Below are positions 10,666 to 52,985 of a DNA stretch of 64,000 bases, piece by piece (positions within the stretch are counted from its first letter, which is position 1; each line of letters starts with the position of its first letter). The notes beneath the pieces are model-generated. The model made no database searches, had not been told where the DNA came from, and worked only from the letters and a program-made list of their open reading frames with translations. The DNA is from a virus (lineage: Duplodnaviria; Caudoviricetes): positions 11,154 through 75,153 of IMG/VR virus record IMGVR_UViG_3300048670_000735; one strand, written 5' to 3'. Position numbers and translations under genes: made by a program.

Positions 10666-11637
10666 ATGGCAAAAAAGTTTTTAGTTAGTATTGATCTCAA
10701 TAAGAATGAGTTACTCAATGCTAGAATTCAAAATTTAGGATCAGCACCATCAAATCCAGTATCAGGTCAGGTCTACTACAATACTGGCGATAACATCATG
10801 TACTTCTGGAATGGCACAGAATGGATTTCTACATCTGGCTCTCTAGAGGTTATTCAAGACGCTATTGGCGCATACGTAGAAGGCGGAGTAGGCCTTACAA
10901 GATCATACAATGACACTACAGGCGTAACAACAATAGATTTAGACAATACAGCTGTTACAGCAGGAACATACGGTTCAATTACCAAGGTTCCAACATTTAC
11001 TGTTGACCAGCAAGGACGTCTAACAGCTGCTAGTGAGGCAAACCTAGTTATTCCACTAGACTCACAAACAACAGGCGATTACGTAGCAACAATTATTGGA
11101 ACAGCTAACGAGGTAACAGTATCTCCAAATAGCGGTCACAATGCTGCAGTCACAATTGGCTTGCCAGACAATGTTGAAATTACTGGTAATTTACAAATTG
11201 GTGGAAACCTAAATGTTATTGGAACTGTCAACTCTGTAAACACTACACAGATTAACATTCAAGATAATAAAGTTAATCTTAATTCAGGATTTACAGGAAA
11301 CCCAGTAGCAGATGCTGGAATCAGAGTTGAGCGTGGAGACAAGCAGGATGTCGAAATCTTGTGGAAAGAGTCTTCAGAAAAATGGCAATTAACAAATGAT
11401 GGCCTAAACTATCACTCAATTGCTAGAAAATATGTAGAGGTTCTTGGAAGTCCATCTACAACTTATAATTTAATACACAATTTAAAAACATCTGAGGTTA
11501 CAGTTCAGGTTTTTCAGTCTGCCAGTCCTTTTGCTCAAGTTGAAGCAGATGTTAACTTAACAAATGAAAATACAGTAACAATTAATTTTGCTGTTGCACC
11601 AACAGCAGGAGAATACAAGGTTGTGATTGTAGGCTAA
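10666..11637 (+). CDS. Fibre/appendage structural protein
   Basis: GQVYYNT, VTAGTYG..VDQQGRLTAA, GNLNVIGT, HNL..VTVQVF fibre-type motifs. Confidence 0.65.
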   Translation: MAKKFLVSIDLNKNELLNARIQNLGSAPSNPVSGQVYYNTGDNIMYFWNGTEWISTSGSLEVIQDAIGAYVEGGVGLTRSYNDTTGVTTIDLDNTAVTAGTYGSITKVPTFTVDQQGRLTAASEANLVIPLDSQTTGDYVATIIGTANEVTVSPNSGHNAAVTIGLPDNVEITGNLQIGGNLNVIGTVNSVNTTQINIQDNKVNLNSGFTGNPVADAGIRVERGDKQDVEILWKESSEKWQLTNDGLNYHSIARKYVEVLGSPSTTYNLIHNLKTSEVTVQVFQSASPFAQVEADVNLTNENTVTINFAVAPTAGEYKVVIVG

Positions 11638-40991: not shown

Positions 40992-41324
40992 TTGGCAACT
41001 ACAGTATATGATGTTGAAGAAATTCAACTACAAAATGGCGCAACAGTTAAACTCAAGCCTTTAACAATTAAAGAGCTTCGTGAGTTTATGAAAGTCATTC
41101 AAAGAACACAAGAAGTAACATCAGAAGATGAGACATTAACAATTCTTATTGAGGCATGTGGAGTGGCACTAAAGAAGCAGCTTCCAGACCTAGTAGCAGA
41201 TAAAGACGCATTTGAAGATACACTTGACGTTCCAACTATCAACCGCATTCTAGAAGTTTGCGGAGGAATTAAGATGGACGACCCAAACCAACTAGCGGCA
41301 GCAGTACTGGCTGGTCAGAACTAG
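40992..41324 (+). CDS. Tail assembly chaperone (G)
   Basis: Between tube and tape measure; GGAGG SD with TTG start. Confidence 0.8.
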   Translation: MATTVYDVEEIQLQNGATVKLKPLTIKELREFMKVIQRTQEVTSEDETLTILIEACGVALKKQLPDLVADKDAFEDTLDVPTINRILEVCGGIKMDDPNQLAAAVLAGQN

Positions 41325-41656
41325 ATCTAGCCGCTTTAGAAGGGGAAGTTTTTCTTCTTGGTAATTGGATAAATTACGAACAACTAGAAGATAATCTTTC
41401 AATGCCAGAGTTAATCCAGACTTTTAAATCAATGCAAAAATCTGAGTCGGAGAAAAGAAAATTCTTAGCTTCAATTCAGGGTGTAGATTTAAATGAAAGC
41501 AGTAATCAAAATGAGGAGGGATCTTCCTTTGAAGATGTTAGAAGAAGAGCACTTGGTATAAATGCATCAGCAGATGATGTTGTTTCACTACAAGGTTCAT
41601 TTGCCAGCGAAGCTGGTTTCGGCATTGGAGCAGGATTAGGATACTCTATAGAGTAA
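41282..41656 (+). CDS. Tail assembly chaperone T part, reached by -1 frameshift
   Basis: Slippery C-CCA-AAC at 41282-41288; the -1 frame is open for 40 codons into ORF 41402..41656. Confidence 0.75.
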   Translation, partial: PKPTSGSSTGWSELDLAALEGEVFLLGNWINYEQLEDNLSMPELIQTFKSMQKSESEKRKFLASIQGVDLNESSNQNEEGSSFEDVRRRALGINASADDVVSLQGSFASEAGFGIGAGLGYSIE

Positions 41657-41665
41657 TATAAGTAT

Positions 41666-44600
41666 ATGGCAGATAATTTAATCACCACCAATATTACCGC
41701 CAATGCAGACTTTACGAGCTTAAGAGCTCAGCTAGCTGCAGTTACTGCCCAACTCATAAAACTTCAAGAAACAACTGCTGGAACAAACGCAAAGCTTGCA
41801 AATCAAATTGCAGTAATGAACAAGTCGTTTGCAACTACCCTTGGCTCTACTGGTCAGTTTTCACAGCACTTTGTTTCTTTAACTTCAGACGTAGAAAAGT
41901 TTGGAAAGAATTTAGATCGTGGCCGTCTTAAATTAAGTGAGTACTATAACACTTGGAACGGCCACACTAAAAAATCAAGCAATTTAATTAGAGATCTTGC
42001 AAAGCAGCAGGTAATGCTTGAGCAGGCTATTATTCAGCCATTAGGTAAAAATGCACAGGGCTTAATGCAATACAACGTAATGGTTGCAAAAGGTCTTGAT
42101 GAGATAAAAAACAAAACAGCTTTAGCTAGACAACAAGCTTCAATTATGAATAAGGTCATGCAAGACGGTGCGGGCCAACTAATTAACTGGGGTAAAAATA
42201 CACAGTGGGCAGGTCGTCAGCTTACAGTAGGACTTACAGTCCCACTCATTGCCTTCGGAGCTGCAGCACAAAAAGCATTTAAAGAAGCAGACGCAGAGCT
42301 AGTAAGATTAACAAAAGTTTATGGCGGATTAGCCGCAACTTCATCTGAAGATTTAGCGCAAGTCAGAAAAGATGTAAAGGCTACTGCTAAAGAAATTGCT
42401 AGTTCCTACGGTGTAGCATATAAAGAAACAATTGCACTTGCAGCTGATTTAGCAGCCACTGGACAACAAGGAAATGAGTTAATTGCATCAACTCAGCAAA
42501 CAACAAGACTTGCTGTTCTTGGTGAAGTTGACAGACAAGATGCAATGAAAGCAACTCTTGCAATTCAAAATGCATTCAAGCAAAATACAAATGAGCTAAC
42601 ACAATCAATTGACTTCCTTAACGCAGTTGAAAACCAGACTTCCACATCTCTTCAAGACCTAACTGAAGCAATTCCAAAAGCAGGTCCAGTTGTAAAATCA
42701 CTTGGCGGAGACGTAAAAGATTTAGCTTTGTATTTAACTGCAATGAAAGAAGGCGGAGTAAACGCATCAGAAGGTGCTAACGCAATCAAATCAGCAATGG
42801 CATCTCTTATCAACCCTACAAAGGTTGCAAAAGAAATGTTTAACGGATTTGGAATAGATATTGATAAAATTGTAACCTCAAATGCTGGAAACCTAACAGC
42901 AACAATAGTAGATCTTCAGTCAGCGCTAGACAGTCTAGATCCTTTAAGCAAGTCAAGAGCTATTGAGCAATTGTTTGGTAAATTCCAGTACGCAAGAATG
43001 TCTGCGCTATTTGAAAACCTAGGAAAATCTGGATCGCAAACACTTCAGGTTATGGATTTAATGAAGGCAAGCACACAAGATCTTGCAGCAATTTCAGAGC
43101 GAGAATTAAAGATGATGACAGAGTCAGCATCAGGACAATTCAAGAGAGCCTGGGCTTCTGTTCAAGCAGACTTAGCCGCTGTTGGAGAACAGTTCTTAAG
43201 AATAAGCACAAAGGTATTAATTGTTGTAGATAAAATTATTCAATTTTTTCAAAATTTGCCAGGCCCAGTTAAAACATTCTTAAATGCTCTGGGCGGAATC
43301 ACAGCAATTGCTGGACCAATAATCATGCTTACAGGTGTACTCGGAAACTTCCTAGGATACATCATTAAGGGTATATTTCATTTAAAGCAATTAGGTAAAG
43401 GCGGACAAAGCTTTAAATTTCTTACCCCTGAAATTATGGCAGCAGATGCTGCAGCAAAAGGTCTTGCAACATCATTCTATAGTGATACAGAAGCAACAAT
43501 TGTTTTATCTAATGCTGTAAATACACTTTCAGAATCATTTGCTAACCTTGAAATGAAAGCAAATGCTGCAAAGGTTGCTGTTCAACCAGCGGTTGCAACT
43601 GTTGGTGGAAGCGCAGTAGCTCCAGGAGTTCTTGGACAAAGAGTAGTTGATAAAAACAATCCGCTAATTGGTTCACCTTATTCAAGAGATATGTCACATT
43701 TGATTCCATCTCAAATGCCACAAATGGGAACAATATTTGGAACAGTCCCAGGTGCTGGCCCAGTAAACGTTAGAGTTGGAAAAAATCCTCAAGCGTACAT
43801 GGACCAAGATCTTCCAAAGATCCCTGGAGTCACATCAGTAAATAACACATCTACTGGAATTGTTGCAGCTGAAGCAGCAAAGTGGCATGCAATGACAGCA
43901 GCAATTGCAATGCAGTCAGAAGCAGAAATAAAAGTATTGAAAAAAGAAGTAATGGCAACGGGAACAATTACATCAAGCCTATCTGATTCTTATCAAGCAT
44001 TGCTCCCAGAATTTTCTGAAATTACAAGTATGGCTGCACAAGAAACAGCTTTAATTGTTAAGCAGCTACAGCAAAGTAAAATAACAGCAGATGAAGCAAG
44101 AGCAAAAGTAATTCAGCTAAACGCAACAGTTGAAGCAATGCTTGCCGAAACAGCTCAAAAGATTGCAGCAGGACAAGGAAGAACTGTAGCCTTAACAACA
44201 GTTCCATTAACATCTCAACCTGTAGTAGACCCAATAACAGGTAAATCAAACATGAAAGAGATGTTCCACAAGGGAACAACAAAAGAAATTGCAGATAGAA
44301 TTGCAAGAGCATTAGGTGGAGTCAGAACCTCTGGAGCGGGATACAATATTCAGACTACAAAGCCTCAGCAATTAAACGCAGGAGGAAGAGTATATGATCC
44401 ATCAAGAGACGGCAACATCGTACCTGGAGACACATCAATTAACTATGATAATACTCCAGCAGTTTTGCAAGAAGGCGGCTATGTATTAAATCAAGGCGCT
44501 TCAAAAAATAATCCAGACCTAGTTAGTCTTGCAAAAAATTCCCGAAACTCTGGAGGAAAAATTGTACCAGCTGTAGTAACTCCAGGTGAGACTTACTTCC

Positions 44601-47600
44601 CTCCAGAAGTTGCTGAGACAATGATGCCTACACTTGAAAAGGCTAACAGAGGTTCAAAAATATCATTAAGAAATGTCGGCGGATATATAGGTGGTCTTGT
44701 AAAAAGATCAAAGAAGAACTACGGAATTAGCTTTGAAGATTCAGAGCAGATGCGTAGATATACTGAATATCATACGTCATCAAATTTTGACCAGTATGCA
44801 AAAGCGGCTTCAATTGCAAATGATGCAGAAGCACTAGTTGCTCTTGGGCTAAGCCCAGAAGAAGCTGTAAAGGAAGCAGATCGCTGGTTTGAAAAGAGAT
44901 ACAATAAAGCTTTAGAAAATAACAATGGAGTATTTAAGCAATCAGAATTTGATAAAGTTACACAAGAAAGCTATTCTGATTTACAAAAAGATTTAAAGAA
45001 AAGATACGGTATAACAAAACCTATCTCAAAAGAATGGCGCACACTTTCAAAGTCTGGAAGCCAGCAGATGAAGGCACAGCGCTGGAGATACACAAGTGGA
45101 AAAGTTGATTACACAGTAAGAAACAAAATATTTGATTTACTTGGAGAACCAGGGAAGAGATTAAAGAAAGAGGCTGCCTTTGCAAATCAAGAGCGAGCAC
45201 ACTACACATCTGGAAGCACACAAGCTAAATCTGGATTTAACTATTTAGGACAGGCAGTAATACAGCCTTGGGAAATTAATCAGCTTGCTCACGAGCTTTC
45301 AAGATATGGAGTTATACAAAATTCATTTTCTTTGTCATCTGCTGAGAATAAACAGCAGTTTGATAGAATTGCAAAAAATTTAGGATACTTAGATCACGAT
45401 GACATGTTGGAAAGCTTAAAGGGCAAAAAGAGTTCTCCAGCAAAACCTCCTAGAGTATTTAAAGTTGAAAATGGAATGACAGCGCCATTGCGTAAAATGG
45501 TTTCTTCTTCACCTGCACAATTTAAAAATTACATGAGATTGCCAGCCGTAGCAAGAATGCTCACTTTAGCTGGAGCAAGACTTAATGCTGGAGGAGCAGT
45601 TGGTGGCTCAGTCCGTAAAGGAAAATATAATTACGGAAAACTTCCAGCATGGATAATCAGAAATGAAAAGATCAAAAACCTAGCCAACACTGATCCAGCA
45701 CATGGTGTTTTACAAATTGGTAAATATCACCCAGCCTTGCATGTTAGAAATCAATATGTTGCTCCTTCTATTAGATATAAGAGTAACTATGAACCATTTA
45801 CATGGGACAAAGGTCCTAATGCTGGTCAAACTTTCTATTCCCCAAGAAGAACTGGCGGAGCACCAGCATTTGAAACTGGAACAATAGAGACAAGAGCAAA
45901 AACTGCTCTATACAATTATATGCAGGGTGACTATCAAGCAATTAATGATCCAGCAGTTCAGGCATATCTTTCAACCATAAGAACTAAATTTACAGGAACA
46001 CTTCATAGAGGAGTTAGAAACATATCTAGCCTTCCTCCTGTAATTAGTAATTTAATTAAAGAAGGCAGATGGGATGATCTTGTAGGCAAAGAGTTTATTA
46101 TGCGTCGCTCATCATGGAGCACAAATAAAGATACTGCAGAAGGCTTTGGTCAAATTCAGCTTATTGCAAACGTAAAAAATAGAAATGCTGTGCCAGCATC
46201 TGAAATATTTCCAAACTTAACATTCCAATCTCCACAGGGACCAGTACCAGTAAACGAAAGTGAAGTTTACATGGGAGGTAAGTTTAGAGTTATTGGAGCT
46301 GATAAAAATAGATTAAAGCTACAAGCAATATATGATGCTGCTCGTGAAAATGGCGGACCAGTAAATGCTGGAAGACCTTATCTTGTTGGAGAAAAGGGTC
46401 CAGAAATCTTCGTTCCAAAAAATGCTGGAGGTGTAATTCCAGGATACAACATGGGCGGAATGGTAAAGTCAATGATGATGAGCTCACTTGGATACATGGG
46501 TGGTTCTGCGCTTGGAGGAATGACAGGCTTGCCAGGCGGAGCAATGATTGGCGGAATGCTTGGCTCAATGTTTGGAATGGGCGGAGGCTCATCTATGGGA
46601 AGAGCTCCAAGGCCACAAGCAGAAGGTCCATTAAGAGAAAATGGAATGTTTGCAAAAAATTTATCTGCAGAGCATTTTACAAAACCAATAGGTCCAGCAG
46701 GAAAACTTGCAGATAAGTTAAATCTGCTTGGATCATCAGGTGGAAGATTTTCTAGTGTTTTAACAAAAATAGGACCACTTCTTGCAAGACTTCCAATGGC
46801 ATTTAATCCAGTTGGGGTTGCAATTGCAGCAGTAACAGCAGCTACAGTTCTTGGGGTTAAAAGATGGAAAGACCATAATGAACATTTAAGAATTGGAATG
46901 CTTCAATATAGCTTAACTGCAGAAGCAGCAAAAAAAGCTGGAGTAAAATTTACTGATTACAATACAAAGCTAGCAGATACCGTTACAAATATTCAAGCAA
47001 TAAGAGAAAGAAATCAGCTTTTGTATGAAAGCATGGAGTCTGCTGGAATGCCAATAGAGATGACTATTGAGCAATATAAGAAATTGCGTAAAGAGGTTAA
47101 GTCATCTTATGCAGACCAAATTAAATTAATTAATCAAACAAAGGGACCAGGGGATACAAGAAAGCTTGCAGAAGATCTTAAGATTCAGTTAATGGCAGCA
47201 GGCATGTCAGCAGAAGATGCAACAAAGAAAATTTGGGCAATGTTTAAACTTTCTGAAAAAGCAAAAGACGCTGCAACATTTACATTAGGAAACTCTGGCT
47301 TTAATAACATAAAAGATGGTCAATCTGTAGCAGTAAGTGCAATATCCAGATACAGCGCTGCAGCAAAAGAAGGCGGACGTGAAGGCGCAGGCGCAGTACA
47401 AACTGGACTGACATCAATAGATGCTGGCATACAAGACATGATTGCTAGAAGCAAAAAAGCAGCCAAAGCAGACAAGTCTGGCAATACAAAAGTATTAACT
47501 GAATATCAGGCACAAGAAGCTATGCTTAATAAATTAAATTCTCTTGAGTCATCAAAAGCAAGATTAACAAAAGCAACAAGAGATGAAATGATTAAGCAAA

Positions 47601-49159
47601 ACCCAGAACTTAAAAAGATTATTAATCCACTAGACACAATTGTAAGTCTATGGGGAAAGATGAATCTTGCAGCAAAAGGCTTTACAGGTAATTTAGAAGC
47701 TCTAGGTCCAAAAGCCGTTGAAACATTATCTAAGATTGCTGATGCTGTTTCTGAAGCAACAGCTTCCGCCAACAAGACTGGGTTATTAAAAGATCAATAT
47801 GCAATGCTTGATAAATTAACTGCACAGCAAAAGGCCTTAATGAAGGCTGCAAAAGGACAAAGCGTAGCCCAACAAATAAGTACTAAGGACCAGCTTAAAG
47901 CTCTTCAAAAACAAATTGATGCAAATAATAAACTTGCAGATGCAAGATTAAAAGCTCTTGATGCTGCAAAGCAAGAGGGAGATATTGCAAGAGAAATTGC
48001 TAAAAAGCAAGCAGAATATGATTCTGCTTTAGCAACAGGTAATGCAGCTGCAGCACAACAAGCAAGCCTAGATATTCAAGGACTGCAATCAGATCAGCAA
48101 TATCTTTCACAGAAAAAAGCAATTGAAGATGCGCTTAAATTACAAAATGCACCACTTGAAGCAAAAATAAAAGCAATTAACGAAGGTCAAGAAAAACTTT
48201 CTGACAGAGCAGCCCTAGCAGCCGAAAGTTTAGGAAAGATTAATGACAAGATAGCAACACAAAAACAAAAAATTGATGACGTTAATTCAGCAATGACAAC
48301 ATTTAGAATAAATGCAATCGCAGCTGGCAAAACTCTTGAAGAGTATGCTTTGACCAAAGAAGGAAAACAAGATGCTGCAGCAGTTGTAGGTACTTCAAAA
48401 ACAGCGGGAATAAAAGTTCCTGCCAGCAGCGGAGGTCAGTATGTAGGAAGTACGTTTGTTCCAAATACAAAGAATGTTGGGTCACAAGCACTAGACCTGA
48501 TTACTAAAACTGAAGATGCAGTAACTTCAGCTCTTACTTCAAAAGGCATTCAAATGGGCAGCGGAGACATCTACATTGTTGGAAAAGACGGAAAGAAAAC
48601 AAAAGTTGATGCAACTTCATATCAAGATGGTAAAAAATCTAATGCAGGTATAAACAGATCTACGGTAAATGGTAAAGAAAAGTTGTCTGTTCAAGCTTTG
48701 CAATTAGTTGCAGAAAAAATACCTACAAAGCAGGGAACAGAATTTTTTATTAAAGATACAAAGTACAAGATTACTGGGCCAGCTAACACCAATGGTATGC
48801 TACCAATTGAAAAAGCTGGATACGGAACAATGAATCTAAATCCAAGAATTCCTACAATTGTTGGAGACAGAGGCCCAGAGCTAGCATTTGGCGGAATGAT
48901 TATCCCTAATATGGCTAAGGTGCCATTCTCTTCTGCAAGATATGATGTCAATAAAGCAAATCTTAGATTTGAGCCAATGCGTGATAATTCATGTGGAAGC
49001 GTAATTAACCTTACTCAAAATATTTATCCTTCAGACGGAATGAATACAGATGCATTTGTAAGACAGGTCGTTCAGCAAACAAAACAAGCTATTGGACAAG
49101 ATACAAAGTTAAATGCTAAAATGGTAGGAAATTCAATGAATGTGAGTATTAAATCATGA
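41666..49159 (+). CDS. Tape measure protein with inserted cargo domains including an ADP-ribosyltransferase
   Basis: TP901-type core (GRQLTVGLTVPL..LAATG..AIPKAGPV..EQLFGK), Ala-rich helical composition, ENGGPV..YLVGEKGPEIFVP motif; ART motifs at 45911-46290. Confidence 0.9.
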   Translation: MADNLITTNITANADFTSLRAQLAAVTAQLIKLQETTAGTNAKLANQIAVMNKSFATTLGSTGQFSQHFVSLTSDVEKFGKNLDRGRLKLSEYYNTWNGHTKKSSNLIRDLAKQQVMLEQAIIQPLGKNAQGLMQYNVMVAKGLDEIKNKTALARQQASIMNKVMQDGAGQLINWGKNTQWAGRQLTVGLTVPLIAFGAAAQKAFKEADAELVRLTKVYGGLAATSSEDLAQVRKDVKATAKEIASSYGVAYKETIALAADLAATGQQGNELIASTQQTTRLAVLGEVDRQDAMKATLAIQNAFKQNTNELTQSIDFLNAVENQTSTSLQDLTEAIPKAGPVVKSLGGDVKDLALYLTAMKEGGVNASEGANAIKSAMASLINPTKVAKEMFNGFGIDIDKIVTSNAGNLTATIVDLQSALDSLDPLSKSRAIEQLFGKFQYARMSALFENLGKSGSQTLQVMDLMKASTQDLAAISERELKMMTESASGQFKRAWASVQADLAAVGEQFLRISTKVLIVVDKIIQFFQNLPGPVKTFLNALGGITAIAGPIIMLTGVLGNFLGYIIKGIFHLKQLGKGGQSFKFLTPEIMAADAAAKGLATSFYSDTEATIVLSNAVNTLSESFANLEMKANAAKVAVQPAVATVGGSAVAPGVLGQRVVDKNNPLIGSPYSRDMSHLIPSQMPQMGTIFGTVPGAGPVNVRVGKNPQAYMDQDLPKIPGVTSVNNTSTGIVAAEAAKWHAMTAAIAMQSEAEIKVLKKEVMATGTITSSLSDSYQALLPEFSEITSMAAQETALIVKQLQQSKITADEARAKVIQLNATVEAMLAETAQKIAAGQGRTVALTTVPLTSQPVVDPITGKSNMKEMFHKGTTKEIADRIARALGGVRTSGAGYNIQTTKPQQLNAGGRVYDPSRDGNIVPGDTSINYDNTPAVLQEGGYVLNQGASKNNPDLVSLAKNSRNSGGKIVPAVVTPGETYFPPEVAETMMPTLEKANRGSKISLRNVGGYIGGLVKRSKKNYGISFEDSEQMRRYTEYHTSSNFDQYAKAASIANDAEALVALGLSPEEAVKEADRWFEKRYNKALENNNGVFKQSEFDKVTQESYSDLQKDLKKRYGITKPISKEWRTLSKSGSQQMKAQRWRYTSGKVDYTVRNKIFDLLGEPGKRLKKEAAFANQERAHYTSGSTQAKSGFNYLGQAVIQPWEINQLAHELSRYGVIQNSFSLSSAENKQQFDRIAKNLGYLDHDDMLESLKGKKSSPAKPPRVFKVENGMTAPLRKMVSSSPAQFKNYMRLPAVARMLTLAGARLNAGGAVGGSVRKGKYNYGKLPAWIIRNEKIKNLANTDPAHGVLQIGKYHPALHVRNQYVAPSIRYKSNYEPFTWDKGPNAGQTFYSPRRTGGAPAFETGTIETRAKTALYNYMQGDYQAINDPAVQAYLSTIRTKFTGTLHRGVRNISSLPPVISNLIKEGRWDDLVGKEFIMRRSSWSTNKDTAEGFGQIQLIANVKNRNAVPASEIFPNLTFQSPQGPVPVNESEVYMGGKFRVIGADKNRLKLQAIYDAARENGGPVNAGRPYLVGEKGPEIFVPKNAGGVIPGYNMGGMVKSMMMSSLGYMGGSALGGMTGLPGGAMIGGMLGSMFGMGGGSSMGRAPRPQAEGPLRENGMFAKNLSAEHFTKPIGPAGKLADKLNLLGSSGGRFSSVLTKIGPLLARLPMAFNPVGVAIAAVTAATVLGVKRWKDHNEHLRIGMLQYSLTAEAAKKAGVKFTDYNTKLADTVTNIQAIRERNQLLYESMESAGMPIEMTIEQYKKLRKEVKSSYADQIKLINQTKGPGDTRKLAEDLKIQLMAAGMSAEDATKKIWAMFKLSEKAKDAATFTLGNSGFNNIKDGQSVAVSAISRYSAAAKEGGREGAGAVQTGLTSIDAGIQDMIARSKKAAKADKSGNTKVLTEYQAQEAMLNKLNSLESSKARLTKATRDEMIKQNPELKKIINPLDTIVSLWGKMNLAAKGFTGNLEALGPKAVETLSKIADAVSEATASANKTGLLKDQYAMLDKLTAQQKALMKAAKGQSVAQQISTKDQLKALQKQIDANNKLADARLKALDAAKQEGDIAREIAKKQAEYDSALATGNAAAAQQASLDIQGLQSDQQYLSQKKAIEDALKLQNAPLEAKIKAINEGQEKLSDRAALAAESLGKINDKIATQKQKIDDVNSAMTTFRINAIAAGKTLEEYALTKEGKQDAAAVVGTSKTAGIKVPASSGGQYVGSTFVPNTKNVGSQALDLITKTEDAVTSALTSKGIQMGSGDIYIVGKDGKKTKVDATSYQDGKKSNAGINRSTVNGKEKLSVQALQLVAEKIPTKQGTEFFIKDTKYKITGPANTNGMLPIEKAGYGTMNLNPRIPTIVGDRGPELAFGGMIIPNMAKVPFSSARYDVNKANLRFEPMRDNSCGSVINLTQNIYPSDGMNTDAFVRQVVQQTKQAIGQDTKLNAKMVGNSMNVSIKS

Positions 49160-49602
49160 CGTTAACACTACCAGTAGGTTCGGCTTTATTTATACAAGAT
49201 ACTAATGGAACTTGGCAAAAGTTAACTGAGCATAACAGATCACCCATATCTTTTGATACTCAAAGAATTGAAAGAACATCTAGGATGTCAAACGGAAGTC
49301 TTAGAAAAGTATTTGTAGCAGATAAGAAATCTTTGTCCACTTCATGGACCATGGTACCTTCATATAATTCAATGACTGTAGACGGCGGTTGGGGAGCTGA
49401 AGATTTAAAATCATTTTATTTAAGTGCAAAAGGTCAAGGTACATTTAATGTTAGAATATCCTATAATCTATCTAGAACTGAAGATTTTATTGCTACATTT
49501 ACCTCATGCTCATTTAGTATTATAAAAAGAAATGTTAAGGCTAGCTCATCTGACACGCCACAGCTTTTTTGGGATGTATCTATTTCATTGGAAGAAGTAT
49601 AA
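49156..49602 (+). CDS. Distal tail-like protein
   Basis: Directly after the tape measure; RMSNGSLRK..WDVSISLEEV. Confidence 0.6.
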   Translation: MTLTLPVGSALFIQDTNGTWQKLTEHNRSPISFDTQRIERTSRMSNGSLRKVFVADKKSLSTSWTMVPSYNSMTVDGGWGAEDLKSFYLSAKGQGTFNVRISYNLSRTEDFIATFTSCSFSIIKRNVKASSSDTPQLFWDVSISLEEV

Positions 49603-52600
49603 TGTTAACTGCATCTTCTAACGTATTAAACGCAATAAATAAATCAACAAGCATTTTAATTACAAATGGATGCCTGCTTGAATATAATATGAATGATATT
49701 ATCCAGGGTACCTCTGTAACGGCCCCAGAGGGGGTTTTGACGGCCTCTTTAACAGCTCCTGCAGATCAGGGAGGGTATACCTATAAACCCTTTGAAAAGT
49801 TATTTCCACTAAAAAGCATAATTGATCCAAGAAGACCCAAATCCGCTGGAATTCAGTACATGATTGCTGGAGATCCAAGCGTAGCAACAACATTATCAAG
49901 CGGGGTAGGCTCAAGAGATACATATGCTTCATCTAAAGAATTTTCTAAAAGGCTTTATTTTTCAAGTATAAAAACGGCATATAAATATTGGGTAACCCCA
50001 AAAGCATCAGGAAACTCATTATCAAATTGCATTTTATCATTAACATATCCTGCAGCAAAAAAAGCAGTATCAAATAAAATAACTATTAAGTTTGAAGTAT
50101 CTCATTCAAAGCCAACTTCTTGGAATGTAAAACTAGTTAATTTAACTGGTGCAGAGTCTACTATATATACAGGAACAACTTGCCCAGATTCTGGTATTGT
50201 AAATATTTACTACAATGGATCTGCATGGACAGAAACAGAGCCATCATCACCCGCAGTTGGAGTTGATTTAAGTGGTTTAAAGCTACAAGTAAACTCAATA
50301 AGCACATCTGGCGGATACCTTGGAGTAATAGAGATGTCTGCAAGGTATGTTGTAGATGTTACACAAAGATTAGAATCATTTACTATATCTCAAAGTGCAT
50401 CAGATTCTGTAGATGGAATCGTTCCCGTAGGCTCGGTAACTGCAAACTCAATTTCTCTTAACTTGAATTCATATGATAGAGTTTGTGAAAATTATGATAA
50501 AGCAATGGTTTTTGATAAAAACAAAATCAATTTATACAAAAATGTTATTGTAAAGCCATACGTAACTATTGAGTCAGAAAAAATAAACTTAGGAGTTTAT
50601 TACTTAGACTCATCAGATCTAAGCGAATTTGGAGACGTATCAATTACAGCTCTAGACGGAGCTAAAGAATTGCAGTTTATAAAGCCACCAGATACTGTAA
50701 CAAAAGATATGTCTTCTGTTGCAATAATAAGAAGATTGCTTGACTCAGTTGGATTTACAAACTATAAATTCAATGTTTCTGAAACAGATACAGCAACAAT
50801 AACCCCAGCCTACTGGTATACAGATCCAAATAAAACTGTATGGGAGCATATTCAAGATCTATGCAAAGATACTCAAATGGTTGCTGTGTTTGATCACAAT
50901 GACATTCTACAATTTTATCCAAGAGATTACATATTTGCAAAAAACAAATCTCCACAGATATCATTTAGGTATAATGCAAAATCAGACAAGCTTGCAAACA
51001 TAGCATCTTTGTCAGTAGAAACTGTTCCATCTGCAAAAGCAGTCAAAGTTTTATACAGCCCACAACTTAGCTCGTCTTATGACATTAGCTCAAAAGATAT
51101 TTTATACAGCTCACCAGTTGTTTCACTTGGAGCAGCAGCATTAACAAGAGACCTTTTGCCGAGCTCTCCAGCAGAAGGAACTTTAGGAACCGAAGATTAC
51201 GCACCCCTTGGTGTGGTTTATTTAGAACCAGTTGTAGTAAGTGGACAAGAAAAGCAGTTATATTCTTACGGCGGATACCTTGTTGTTGAAAAAGAAATTA
51301 TTGAGTACGACGCAATACAATATCAGTATCAAGACATAAATGATTCATCTGTTAAATACAAATGGATGAAGTCTGAATCTGATGTTCAAAAAAGTCAAGG
51401 TCTTTCAAAGCCAAATACATTTAAGCCTACAGGTAAATATAGAATAAAAGCTAGAAATGTTTTTAATGTTGTTTCTAGCACAGATACAGCTTCATTAACC
51501 CATACTGTAAATACAGACACGCTAGCAGCAGAATGGGAAGGCAAGAAATGGGACAGCGCAGCTGGAACAATTACATCAGACCAATCTGTTTTTACATTAA
51601 AAGAGGTTGTTGCATCGACTGGAAACAATTTATTTAACCCTATCCCAAAATCTATGATGACTTTATTTGCACCTAATTCAACTACAGTTGTAAATCCAGA
51701 TAAAACTTTGCCCAATTCTTACAAGCCAAATACAGTTTATTCAATGGCAACAACTAATGCAAAATATTTAAGCGGGGAAAGTTTTGTAATAGGAACCAAT
51801 ATGTACTTCCCGCTAGTCAAAGATCCAAAAACTCAGCAGGGAACAGGAGAGCAAAGAGTAACCTCTGGTTTAGCATTCTCTTTAAGCTCAGACAACAGAA
51901 GCGGATATTTACTTACAGTATCAACGTCACAAAATTCTAACGGGGAAAAGAATTACAGAGATGTAAATTTTTATAAAATAGTTGATGGAAAGCCTGTATC
52001 AATGACAAATTCTCAAAAAGATACAGACGGAACAATTATTACAAATATAAATGGCGGTCAACTCTACAGAATAGATATTCGTGCAAACTACTCCAAGCCT
52101 GCTGGGGGAACAACTAAAGTTCTTGCTCTTAAGATTTTAATTAATAACAAAACATTCGTTGTTGTTGATTCTAACCCTTTAAATATAACAGAGAAGATTG
52201 GCCTACTATCTCTTCAAGGTATATCAGCTTTTGATTATGTATACTCATCTTCAATAAGCTCAGCAAACTTTTTAGCCAATAATAGCTTTAATTTATATAA
52301 AGGATTTTTAGGCGGAGAGTCTTCTGTAGTTAAAAATTTCGGAGATTTTATTTTTGATCAAGGCAAAAAAATAGAGAGCCCTTCATGGATAAAAGAATTT
52401 GGGCCAGTAGCTAGAGAACTTAAAAGAATACAGACTAGATATACTACCCCAGGTTTTCCAAAATACTCTCAGCTTGTAAATAATCCAGACGTTACAATAG
52501 TTGGAGAATCAATAGACTCATTCACTATGGATATATTTGCAATGAATAATAGTGGTGCATTTGCCTCCCTAGCAAACGGAGAAGAAAAAACATTTACTGT

Positions 52601-52985
52601 TGTGGGAGACTTTATTGTTCCTTCAGATCCCTTTGAATATATTGATCCAGATTTAACAGACGTAGACAAACAAGAACAAGTAGGCTTCGAGTCTACCTGG
52701 ATACAAAGAGAAACAGAAGCTAGGGATTTAGCAAAATGGATGACCGAGCAATGGTCTAAGCAGCAAAGAGTTGTCTCTCTTGAAACATTTATAAACCCAT
52801 TAATTCAAATAGGAGATATAGTTGAGATTTCTTATCCAGAAAACAAAATATATTCATCTGAAGACACATCAATACCTTCAGGGTATTCAGCAAGTAAGTT
52901 TGTAGTGCTATCTTTAGACACAACTTATGACAATCAATCTTCCCCAACAACAAGAATAACCTGCAGATCGATTTATACTGGATGA
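49602..52985 (+). CDS. Large tail tip/baseplate hub protein
   Basis: LGVYY..ITALDG..TVWEHIQDLC..NPLIQIGDIV hub-like motifs; ATG at 49602 overlaps the previous stop. Confidence 0.7.
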   Translation: MLTASSNVLNAINKSTSILITNGCLLEYNMNDIIQGTSVTAPEGVLTASLTAPADQGGYTYKPFEKLFPLKSIIDPRRPKSAGIQYMIAGDPSVATTLSSGVGSRDTYASSKEFSKRLYFSSIKTAYKYWVTPKASGNSLSNCILSLTYPAAKKAVSNKITIKFEVSHSKPTSWNVKLVNLTGAESTIYTGTTCPDSGIVNIYYNGSAWTETEPSSPAVGVDLSGLKLQVNSISTSGGYLGVIEMSARYVVDVTQRLESFTISQSASDSVDGIVPVGSVTANSISLNLNSYDRVCENYDKAMVFDKNKINLYKNVIVKPYVTIESEKINLGVYYLDSSDLSEFGDVSITALDGAKELQFIKPPDTVTKDMSSVAIIRRLLDSVGFTNYKFNVSETDTATITPAYWYTDPNKTVWEHIQDLCKDTQMVAVFDHNDILQFYPRDYIFAKNKSPQISFRYNAKSDKLANIASLSVETVPSAKAVKVLYSPQLSSSYDISSKDILYSSPVVSLGAAALTRDLLPSSPAEGTLGTEDYAPLGVVYLEPVVVSGQEKQLYSYGGYLVVEKEIIEYDAIQYQYQDINDSSVKYKWMKSESDVQKSQGLSKPNTFKPTGKYRIKARNVFNVVSSTDTASLTHTVNTDTLAAEWEGKKWDSAAGTITSDQSVFTLKEVVASTGNNLFNPIPKSMMTLFAPNSTTVVNPDKTLPNSYKPNTVYSMATTNAKYLSGESFVIGTNMYFPLVKDPKTQQGTGEQRVTSGLAFSLSSDNRSGYLLTVSTSQNSNGEKNYRDVNFYKIVDGKPVSMTNSQKDTDGTIITNINGGQLYRIDIRANYSKPAGGTTKVLALKILINNKTFVVVDSNPLNITEKIGLLSLQGISAFDYVYSSSISSANFLANNSFNLYKGFLGGESSVVKNFGDFIFDQGKKIESPSWIKEFGPVARELKRIQTRYTTPGFPKYSQLVNNPDVTIVGESIDSFTMDIFAMNNSGAFASLANGEEKTFTVVGDFIVPSDPFEYIDPDLTDVDKQEQVGFESTWIQRETEARDLAKWMTEQWSKQQRVVSLETFINPLIQIGDIVEISYPENKIYSSEDTSIPSGYSASKFVVLSLDTTYDNQSSPTTRITCRSIYTG

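Follow-up and report, generated by a model that had tools for sequence, protein, structure and literature searches.

Glycine-rich linkers and exchangeable segments, one with a predicted ADP-ribosyltransferase fold, in the tape measure protein of a tailed phage

Introduction

The usual view of tape measure proteins (TMPs) is that they set tail length and form a channel, and that some of them carry cell-wall hydrolases. In this work we analyzed a TMP gene in a 64,000-nt stretch of virus DNA (Duplodnaviria; Caudoviricetes), positions 11,154 to 75,153 of the IMG/VR record IMGVR_UViG_3300048670_000735, which we call the window. The middle of this TMP holds two adjacent segments, cassette 1 and cassette 2, each preceded by a 19-residue glycine-rich motif (J1 and J2), and related TMPs carry unrelated segments at the same two slots. 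Structure prediction and conserved catalytic residues indicate that cassette 2 contains an ADP-ribosyltransferase (ART) fold of the R-S-E type.

Several described systems are comparable in part. Some TMPs, that of mycobacteriophage TM4 among them, contain peptidoglycan-hydrolase motifs, an enzymatic module that lies in frame and is reported to be used at infection (PMC1796659). Longer relatives of the window TMP resemble the TM4 type in that they carry CHAP, LysM, and NlpC/P60 at residues 2680-3130. The substrate of TM4-type enzymes is the cell wall, outside the cytoplasm, whereas the ART of the window TMP would need to reach the cytoplasm, since it depends on nicotinamide adenine dinucleotide (NAD+) and on a protein as target; the window TMP also differs in its pair of neighboring slots, which are filled in many alternative ways, and in its conserved linker. 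The proteolytically processed TMPs T5 pb2 and lambda gpH are, like the window TMP, long proteins with glycine-rich and hydrophobic segments. According to the T5 report, pb2 is cut after R1127, directly before AEGG, between a hydrophobic stretch and an enzymatic C-terminal piece (PMC10038345), while for the lambda TMP the processing site and the protease are still given as unknown in a 2025 paper. The pb2 sequence AEGG...GEHGTE..P aligns with ENGG...GEKGPE..P, which follows R1560 of the window TMP. In contrast to pb2, the window motif lies in mid-protein with about 900 residues after it, the cargo is upstream rather than downstream of the motif, and the cargo is a predicted ART, not a muralytic peptidase.

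Polyvalent proteins combine unrelated effector domains, ARTs among them, in one polypeptide that is delivered together with the DNA, and their proteolytic separation has been proposed (Iyer et al., 2017, PMC5512222). They are processed by an embedded metallopeptidase (zincin-like MPTase), and Pfam scans found no such domain in the window TMP. The polyvalent type is defined by at least two unrelated effector domains; the window TMP has one ART, and its cassette 1 is without assignable function. Unlike polyvalent proteins, the carrier here is an essential structural protein, and the word "tape" has 0 occurrences in that paper. T4 Alt is described as a mono-ART carried in the virion, which is injected along with the DNA and then modifies proteins of the host (PMC5512222, PMC7824862). 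Alt is a separate, head-packaged protein, whereas the ART of the window is part of a tail TMP. An earlier note on this DNA, made by a model from the letters and their open reading frames (ORFs), likened the TMP to polymorphic toxins. The likeness extends to a conserved carrier, interchangeable modules of toxin-type enzymes, and sharp recombination boundaries. In other respects it is loose: polymorphic toxins have a C-terminal toxin and the cassettes are internal (residues 1021-1560 of 2497, with about 900 residues of conserved type after them); they have a cognate immunity gene and the window TMP is flanked downstream by tail genes, with no immunity gene identified in a record that is ~65% complete and was searched for ADP-ribosylhydrolase and macro domains; and the ART family, nearly confined to TMPs, is not common to the wider toxin pool.

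Results

A glycine-rich motif occurs twice in the TMP and recurs in its relatives

The stop-free ORF 41666-49159 (+) encodes 2497 aa, and its product is a TMP of the TP901 type: PF10145 matches residues 239-438 with 96.3 bits (gathering cut-off 33.2), and nine PHROG tape-measure families match residues ~1-850 (best E 1.5e-121). The earlier note had described a repeated motif in front of two charged, non-TMP-like domains, and both 19-residue copies are where it placed them, at residues 1002-1020 and 1306-1324 (Table 1). The strict pattern GGxxGGx[VILM]x5NYG is found twice in the TMP and in 0 of 20000 residue shuffles. Of the shorter NxGG there are 6 copies, all inside residues 904-1595, where shuffles average 1.05 (6 or more in 16 of 20000 shuffles). 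When a motif profile was run over the six-frame translation of the window, J1 and J2 alone matched (26.6 and 21.7 bits; next best 1.6). The 285 aa that the note gave for the first segment are exact (1021-1305), while the second segment is 236 aa (1325-1560) instead of 234. The other NxGG or NGG motifs that it listed are present (NxGG starts at 44375, 44546, 46421, and 46448; NGG at 46349), each 3 nt downstream of the figure given, because those figures include the preceding residue.

Relatives were collected by a search with residues 880-1660, which gave 343 TMPs at E<=0.001 among 7999 scored candidates; the 120 best of these were retained. Near residues 1005 and 1310 they repeat the unit [RK]N-x-GG-x-[ILV]-GG-x-V-x5-NYG (sometimes GYG), even where the N cores are only 60-70% identical. 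At 8 bits or more the motif is detected in 93 of 121 TMPs, with a single copy in 30, two copies in 54, and three copies in 9; some motif-negative relatives have degenerate N-x-GG forms at equivalent places. Upstream of J1, the pre-junction block is present in 120 out of 120 relatives with 36-96% identity (55-96% in the closer type, ~33-48% in a second type). Some relatives have a third, expanded copy, RNSGGIIPNYALGGRVHSGKNNYG, after the VGEKGPE motif, where the window has the degenerate KNAGGVIPGYNMGGMVKSM. The residues that flank the junction unit are unconserved, and the predicted local distance difference test score (pLDDT) of the unit is below 50 in both AlphaFold models. We read the unit as an autonomous linker that is probably flexible, as the low model confidence would suggest.

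Table 1. Positions of the TMP gene and of the features assigned within it (window coordinates; AF2, AlphaFold2).
Feature	Position	Strand	Basis
Tape measure protein gene, 2497 aa	41666..49159	+	Open frame, PF10145, PHROG, gene order
PF10145 PhageMin_Tail core, residues 239-438	42380..42979	+	Pfam
Conserved pre-junction block with two short NxGG motifs (nt 44375, 44546)	44306..44668	+	Identity among relatives
Junction motif J1, RNVGGYIGGLVKRSKKNYG, residues 1002-1020	44669..44725	+	Translation, motif profile; pLDDT <35 in fold
Cassette 1, residues 1021-1305, 285 aa, predicted helical	44726..45580	+	AF2 model
Junction motif J2, LNAGGAVGGSVRKGKYNYG, residues 1306-1324; recurrent breakpoint at 3' end	45581..45637	+	Translation, comparisons
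Cassette 2, predicted N-terminal beta-rich subdomain, residues 1325-1404, invariant DPxHG	45638..45877	+	Model strands; H, G invariant
Cassette 2, predicted R-S-E ART core, residues 1405-1560	45878..46345	+	Foldseek, VIA, invariant residues
Predicted catalytic residues R1448; S1483; E1531/E1533	46007-46009; 46112-46114; span 46256-46264	+	
"Post" motif ENGGPVNAGRPYLVGEKGPEIFVPK, after invariant R1560; candidate processing site	46346..46420	+	BLAST, hhalign to T5 pb2
Degenerate third junction, KNAGGVIPGYNMGGMVKSM, without NYG	46418..46474	+	Relatives show RNSGGIIPNYALGGRVHSGKNNYG there
Gly/Met-rich hydrophobic stretch	46475..46609	+	Read from translation
C-terminal IVGDRGPELAFGGMIIPN motif, second copy of VGExGPE type	48857..48925	+	Translation

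Cassettes are exchanged between conserved flanks

The earlier note proposed that related TMPs should share flanks and junctions and differ in their inserts, with the motifs as punctuation between modules that are not TMP-like, and this is what the relatives show (7-10 slot-1 families; an ART or a family called C3 in slot 2). Strict clustering of 119 TMPs, from the pre-junction block to the "post" motif, gave 10 slot-1 families (C2, C4-C12) and 2 slot-2 families, of which C3 measures 350-500 aa. One TMP has both slot-2 families in series, J-C2-J-ART-J-C3. Looser clustering of 193 TMPs gave 7 slot-1 families, and the two largest each pair with both slot-2 families (S1+ART 36, S1+C3 61, S2+ART 61, S2+C3 3). 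Between alternative families of a slot no similarity was detectable at E 1e-4. On an N-core tree (FastTree, first 640 residues of 185 TMPs), the slot-1 family changes at least 33 times (minimum possible 6, shuffled mean 77) and the slot-2 family at least 10 times (minimum possible 2, shuffled mean 53), which indicates that the cassettes are partly inherited and repeatedly swapped. At loci L038-L081 the N cores are 82-90% identical to that of the window TMP and the middle is unrelated, and the nearest N-core relatives outside the immediate clade hold C3, not the ART.

Examples of C3 are found at L060:5357-6811 (+), L018:5639-6691 (+), and 14 other loci (alignment A4), where the family starts with FLGMP. 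Its invariant residues are the K in VFVKP, a Glu ~11 residues on, D-L-x-x-x-N in RGDKDLGRGN, and then D-x-G; in their arrangement they look like a protein-kinase-type signature. Profile searches with C3 against Pfam and PDB sequences found nothing, and Pfam gave nothing over cut-off in the middle regions of 20 relatives. In the ESM Atlas the nearest named clusters to C3 carry LepB_N (score 0.93), a lead only.

The breakpoints are sharp and recur at the 3' end of J2. The relative P0007 is 96-100% identical to the window TMP in nearly all 50-aa bins up to "NYGK" and diverges immediately afterwards, with a different segment that is 61 aa longer and has an extended N-terminal subdomain; identity is 58-88% over 1301-1550 (~74-88% in the ART core) and returns to 96% from ~1551 at "...AIYDAARENGGP". 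At the DNA level, the window and locus L003 share ~90% identity to about residue 1320, 66-83% with a 186-nt gap after that, and 87-98% after residue 1560. Contigs of runs X7, X10, and X14, from three studies, match the window to nt 45638, one base past J2, and are then unlike it; in the X14 contig 363 nt replace 222 nt and the match resumes at 45861. The beta-rich part of cassette 2 (residues 1325-1404) is thus the piece most often replaced, being swapped in P0007, L003, X7, X10, and X14. No joint of J1 with J2 was seen in four runs, which is weak evidence since contigs were examined.

Further downstream, the window TMP and P0007 are only 22-56% identical over residues 1651-1750 (46616-46915), another replaced segment just past the Gly/Met-rich region.

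Cassette 2 has a predicted ADP-ribosyltransferase fold

The fold of cassette 2 was predicted by AF2 from a 19-sequence alignment (mean pLDDT 67, core 70-88). Foldseek against PDB returned 64 matches at E<=1e-3 (best E 2.5e-5), and the matches listed are ARTs: Vis, iota Ia, CDTa, C2-I, C3, ExoS/T, HopU1, and Tre1. In VIA-align the model superimposes on Vis with a Z of 11.0 and a root-mean-square deviation of 3.5 A over 148 residues, covering residues 1405-1558, and all 50 of the 50 rows listed are ARTs. The R-S-E clade is known by a triad of a catalytic Arg, Ser-x-Ser, and Glu-x-Glu, the last of which suggests arginine as the acceptor. The window TMP has R1448 (LHRGV), S1483/S1485 (RRSSWS), and E1531/E1533 (NESEV) in the order of the clade, and in two sets of homologues (19 of 19 and 16 of 16), some as distant as ~35% identity, R1448, S1483, E1531, and E1533 never vary. 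The modelled fold together with these residues identifies an R-S-E ART fold, of toxin type, in cassette 2, in agreement with the effector-type cargo that the earlier note had supposed. As no Pfam ART model reaches its cut-off, the cassette represents a separate sequence family of the R-S-E fold, outside PF03496. The family is nearly confined to these TMPs: among 1.84 billion cluster representatives 44 belong to it, and 32 of the 44 have a length of 1900 aa or more.

Other carriers were also observed. P0150 (1267 aa, without the TMP N core) has an ART-like region at residues 298-466 and a C3-like region at ~841-1150 with repeated FAKGGY-x-G-x-G units between them, which suggests that both cargo families travel together on another carrier with similar punctuation. 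P0127 (399 aa) and P0143 (414 aa) look like short proteins with this ART and a C-terminal motif of the GG...SDSI..L..GEYV type.

Cassette 1 is a helical domain in the model

The AF2 model of cassette 1 consists of helices, with pLDDT 86-95 across model residues 40-120, and an alignment of 12 homologues shows invariant D, H, G-x-A, P, and N (a G-x-A...P...N block). Foldseek against PDB gave nothing at E<=1e-3, the best Z in a wide VIA-align search was only 3.9, Pfam gave zero matches over cut-off, and the ESM Atlas returned no named cluster (best score 0.88). Judged by this model, cassette 1 appears to match no known fold or family. ARH3, at Foldseek rank 12 with E 2.5, was rejected as evidence.

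The "post" motif resembles the T5 pb2 processing site

The "post" motif that follows cassette 2 was found by BLAST in 118 of 120 relatives irrespective of the preceding cassette, and Arg-Glu-x-Gly-Gly is retained behind the ART as well as behind C3. In T5 pb2 the sequence at the cut is PR, with AEGGMMYPGVSYQMGEHGTEVVTP directly after the cleaved bond. When a profile of the "post" motif (19 TMPs, alignment A5) was aligned by hhalign to the pb2 C terminus, the match was weak (E 3.5e-4, probability 37%, 35 columns), with the invariant R1560 paired with R1127. We infer from this pairing, and from the Arg-Glu-x-Gly-Gly kept before either cassette, that the bond between R1560 and E1561 at the C-terminal edge of the cargo is the best candidate cleavage site. 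The same hhalign comparison with lambda gpH gave no meaningful match. A tblastn search with residues 879-1645 gave a single 36-residue match, to a Roseobacter phage TMP and limited to the "post" motif.

The VGE/DxGPE motif is present both in mid-protein (46346-46420) and at the extreme C terminus (48857-48925), so that the TMP looks like two tandem TMP-like units, with the cargo ending the first. The Gly/Met-rich stretch 46475..46609 may have a membrane role. In lambda gene H (L082:143-2704; gpH ~706-750) a C-terminal fragment of ~14 kDa would start near residue 715, which lies within AIGGAVGGGASASGG / AIGGAVGGG, and the GG-x-x-GG core there resembles that of the J motif.

Discussion

We consider it probable that, taken as a whole, the middle of this TMP is a two-slot cargo region whose linkers mark where modules are exchanged and whose slot-2 ART is delivered to the host; within this explanation, the gene would quite likely belong to a freshwater siphophage of roughly 115 kb. 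Residues ~1000-1600 would form a cargo bay in which the glycine-rich units, predicted to be disordered, act as autonomous linkers between modules and mark in-frame exchange by recombination between phages. Slot 1 would hold a helical domain, and slot 2 a small beta subdomain followed by an R-S-E mono-ART with an intact Arg/Ser-x-Ser/Glu-x-Glu site; different lineages would carry different cargo. The cargo region may be assembled in the tail in a possibly unfolded state, and at infection the TMP would leave the tail before the DNA does. Since siphophage TMPs are pushed out of the tail and into the cell envelope before the DNA, the ART would most likely be delivered into the host at infection, where, cleaved or not, it could reach the cytoplasm and modify a host protein using NAD+, as injected T4 Alt does. 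Release of the cargo may need cleavage, most likely between R1560 and E1561 at R-E-x-GG by analogy with T5 pb2.

An enzyme of cytoplasmic type within a TMP implies entry of some portion of the TMP into the cytoplasm, and a tail able to deliver enzymes for takeover or counter-defence. The conserved linker and the recurrent, base-precise breakpoints amount to a concrete rule, at the sequence level, for exchanging modules in frame within an essential structural gene. For TMP processing, the alignment with the site of the T5 cut provides a candidate rule that can be tested. In a literature search with most subscription journals outside it, no report of an ART in a TMP was found, as judged by titles and the starts of abstracts.

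Several points weigh against this explanation. The Pfam model ADPrib_exo_Tox (PF03496) scores 13 bits on cassette 2 against a cut-off of 23.4 (E 0.065), a cassette 2 profile search against PDB sequences gave 0 matches, and the ART call is based on a medium-confidence model (mean pLDDT 67) and conserved motifs; the cassette 1 model is likewise of medium confidence. The data show motif conservation, cassette exchange, the position of the breakpoints, and the ART fold with its catalytic residues, whereas delivery, enzymatic activity, target, and cleavage are steps that we infer. The lumen of a tail tube would be too narrow for three folded copies of the ~560-aa cargo next to one another. On the side of the comparison, the relatives were chosen by similarity to the cargo region itself, so the family counts are biased, and the tree was built by FastTree on a region that may itself recombine. 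The motif was undetected by the profile (8 bits or more) in 28 of 121 TMPs and is absent before slot 1 in many, and where relatives have a full third motif (J3) it is not always followed by a cassette. The breakpoints of X7 and X10 show identical variant sequence and may be one event.

It is possible, though we doubt it, that the motifs have a structural part in the TMP trimer or at the tail-tip interface, for instance docking in the tube or hub as short beta hairpins or register clamps, and that they are left uncleaved, with the cargo covalently attached and active as part of the TMP. Several related VGExGPE or GG-x-V-P motifs in the region, one of them at the extreme C terminus, are consistent with such a role. 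The homologous C-terminal piece of T5 pb2 remains attached within the hub (PMC10038345). No further copy of the motif is present in the window when all six frames are translated, which argues against a general virion-protease site. On the other hand, the AF2 pLDDT is below 50 at the motifs, though a monomer model cannot show trimer contacts, and the motif is absent or degenerate in many relatives with the same flanks.

It is unlikely that the TMPs of this siphophage lineage are polyproteins cut at [RK]-(x)-[NE]-x-GG, a site of the kind cut in T5 pb2, during assembly or after ejection, so that interchangeable enzymes, an Arg-type ART in this phage and a kinase-like module in sister phages, are released into the cytoplasm before the DNA enters and cassettes are swapped at the linkers. 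The J units start with [RK]-N-x-GG, similar to the R-E-x-GG of the "post" motif; in the hhalign comparison the NYG motifs themselves are not aligned to the T5 cut. Pfam scans of the whole TMP and of its parts found no peptidase family, though remote homologues may escape such scans. If the polyprotein reading were true, it would provide a sequence rule for the TMP cleavage sites that have long been unknown, and the tail lumen, not only the head, would be a vehicle for injected takeover or anti-defence enzymes; phages would re-arm by cassette swaps exactly at the linkers.

That the ART-like domain is a catalytically dead structural relic, kept as bulk or as a binding module, seems to us quite improbable. 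The absence of a Pfam ART model over cut-off and the restriction of the family to these TMPs would fit a relic, as would the lack of a partner: no ADP-ribosylhydrolase or macro domain was found in the 75-kb record, which is ~65% complete (other immunity types were not searched). Against this stands the invariance, to ~35% identity, of the catalytic Arg, the Ser of S-x-S, and both Glu in all 19 and all 16 homologues, a pattern expected under selection for activity.

The earlier note also offered the motifs as recombination junctions. It is very improbable that the motif DNA is a site-specific or homology-driven recombination site, such as a shufflon-like or att-like core. Several data sets do have breakpoints at the 3' end of J2, yet J1 and J2 have only 31 of 57 nt in common, the longest common word within +/-60 nt is 11 nt, and relatives keep the peptide with varied residues and codons. 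This argues for a constraint on the peptide, the linker being the place where in-frame hybrids survive. The motif is conserved at the level of protein and not of DNA, in keeping with a linker rather than a recombination site, and the DNA-level form of the claim is not supported. Finally, an ordinary, vertically inherited TMP region with merely fast-evolving stretches and no exchange is hardly tenable and already contradicted: the families do track the N-core tree far better than random labels (33 vs 77; 10 vs 53), but alternative slot families show no similarity at E 1e-4, TMPs with 82-99% identical N cores hold unrelated middles, breakpoints are sharp to within one base or residue, and both slot-1 families pair with both slot-2 families.

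Gene neighborhood and distribution

The TMP gene lies in a tail module, between tube- or chaperone-like genes and a minor tail gene. Upstream, PHROG matches mark genes for a portal, a head maturation protease, a structural protein, and an Ig-domain tube-like protein, and small chaperone-like ORFs also lie on that side; the gene downstream (49569-52985) encodes a minor tail protein of 1138 aa. The small ORFs 40992-41324 (+) and 41402-41656 (+), directly 5' of the TMP gene, are at the position of a tail assembly chaperone pair. The parent virus record of 75 kb is estimated to be 65% complete, and relatives are found on contigs up to 117 kb. In a set of 50,697 phage records, megablast found no match to the TMP gene.

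The longer relatives of the TMP (up to 4319 aa) have CHAP, LysM, and sub-threshold NlpC/P60 in their C-terminal half; this cell-wall-enzyme zone lies at residues 2681-3128 in P0053 and at residues 3002-3046 in P0039. It is a second insertion zone, distinct from the ART/C3 slots. Positions 43700-47300 of the window, whole or in parts, are present in runs X1-X20, which are labelled freshwater or lake metagenomes and come from 10 studies, and six of these runs, which may include the sample of origin, hold all or nearly all sampled words of that region.

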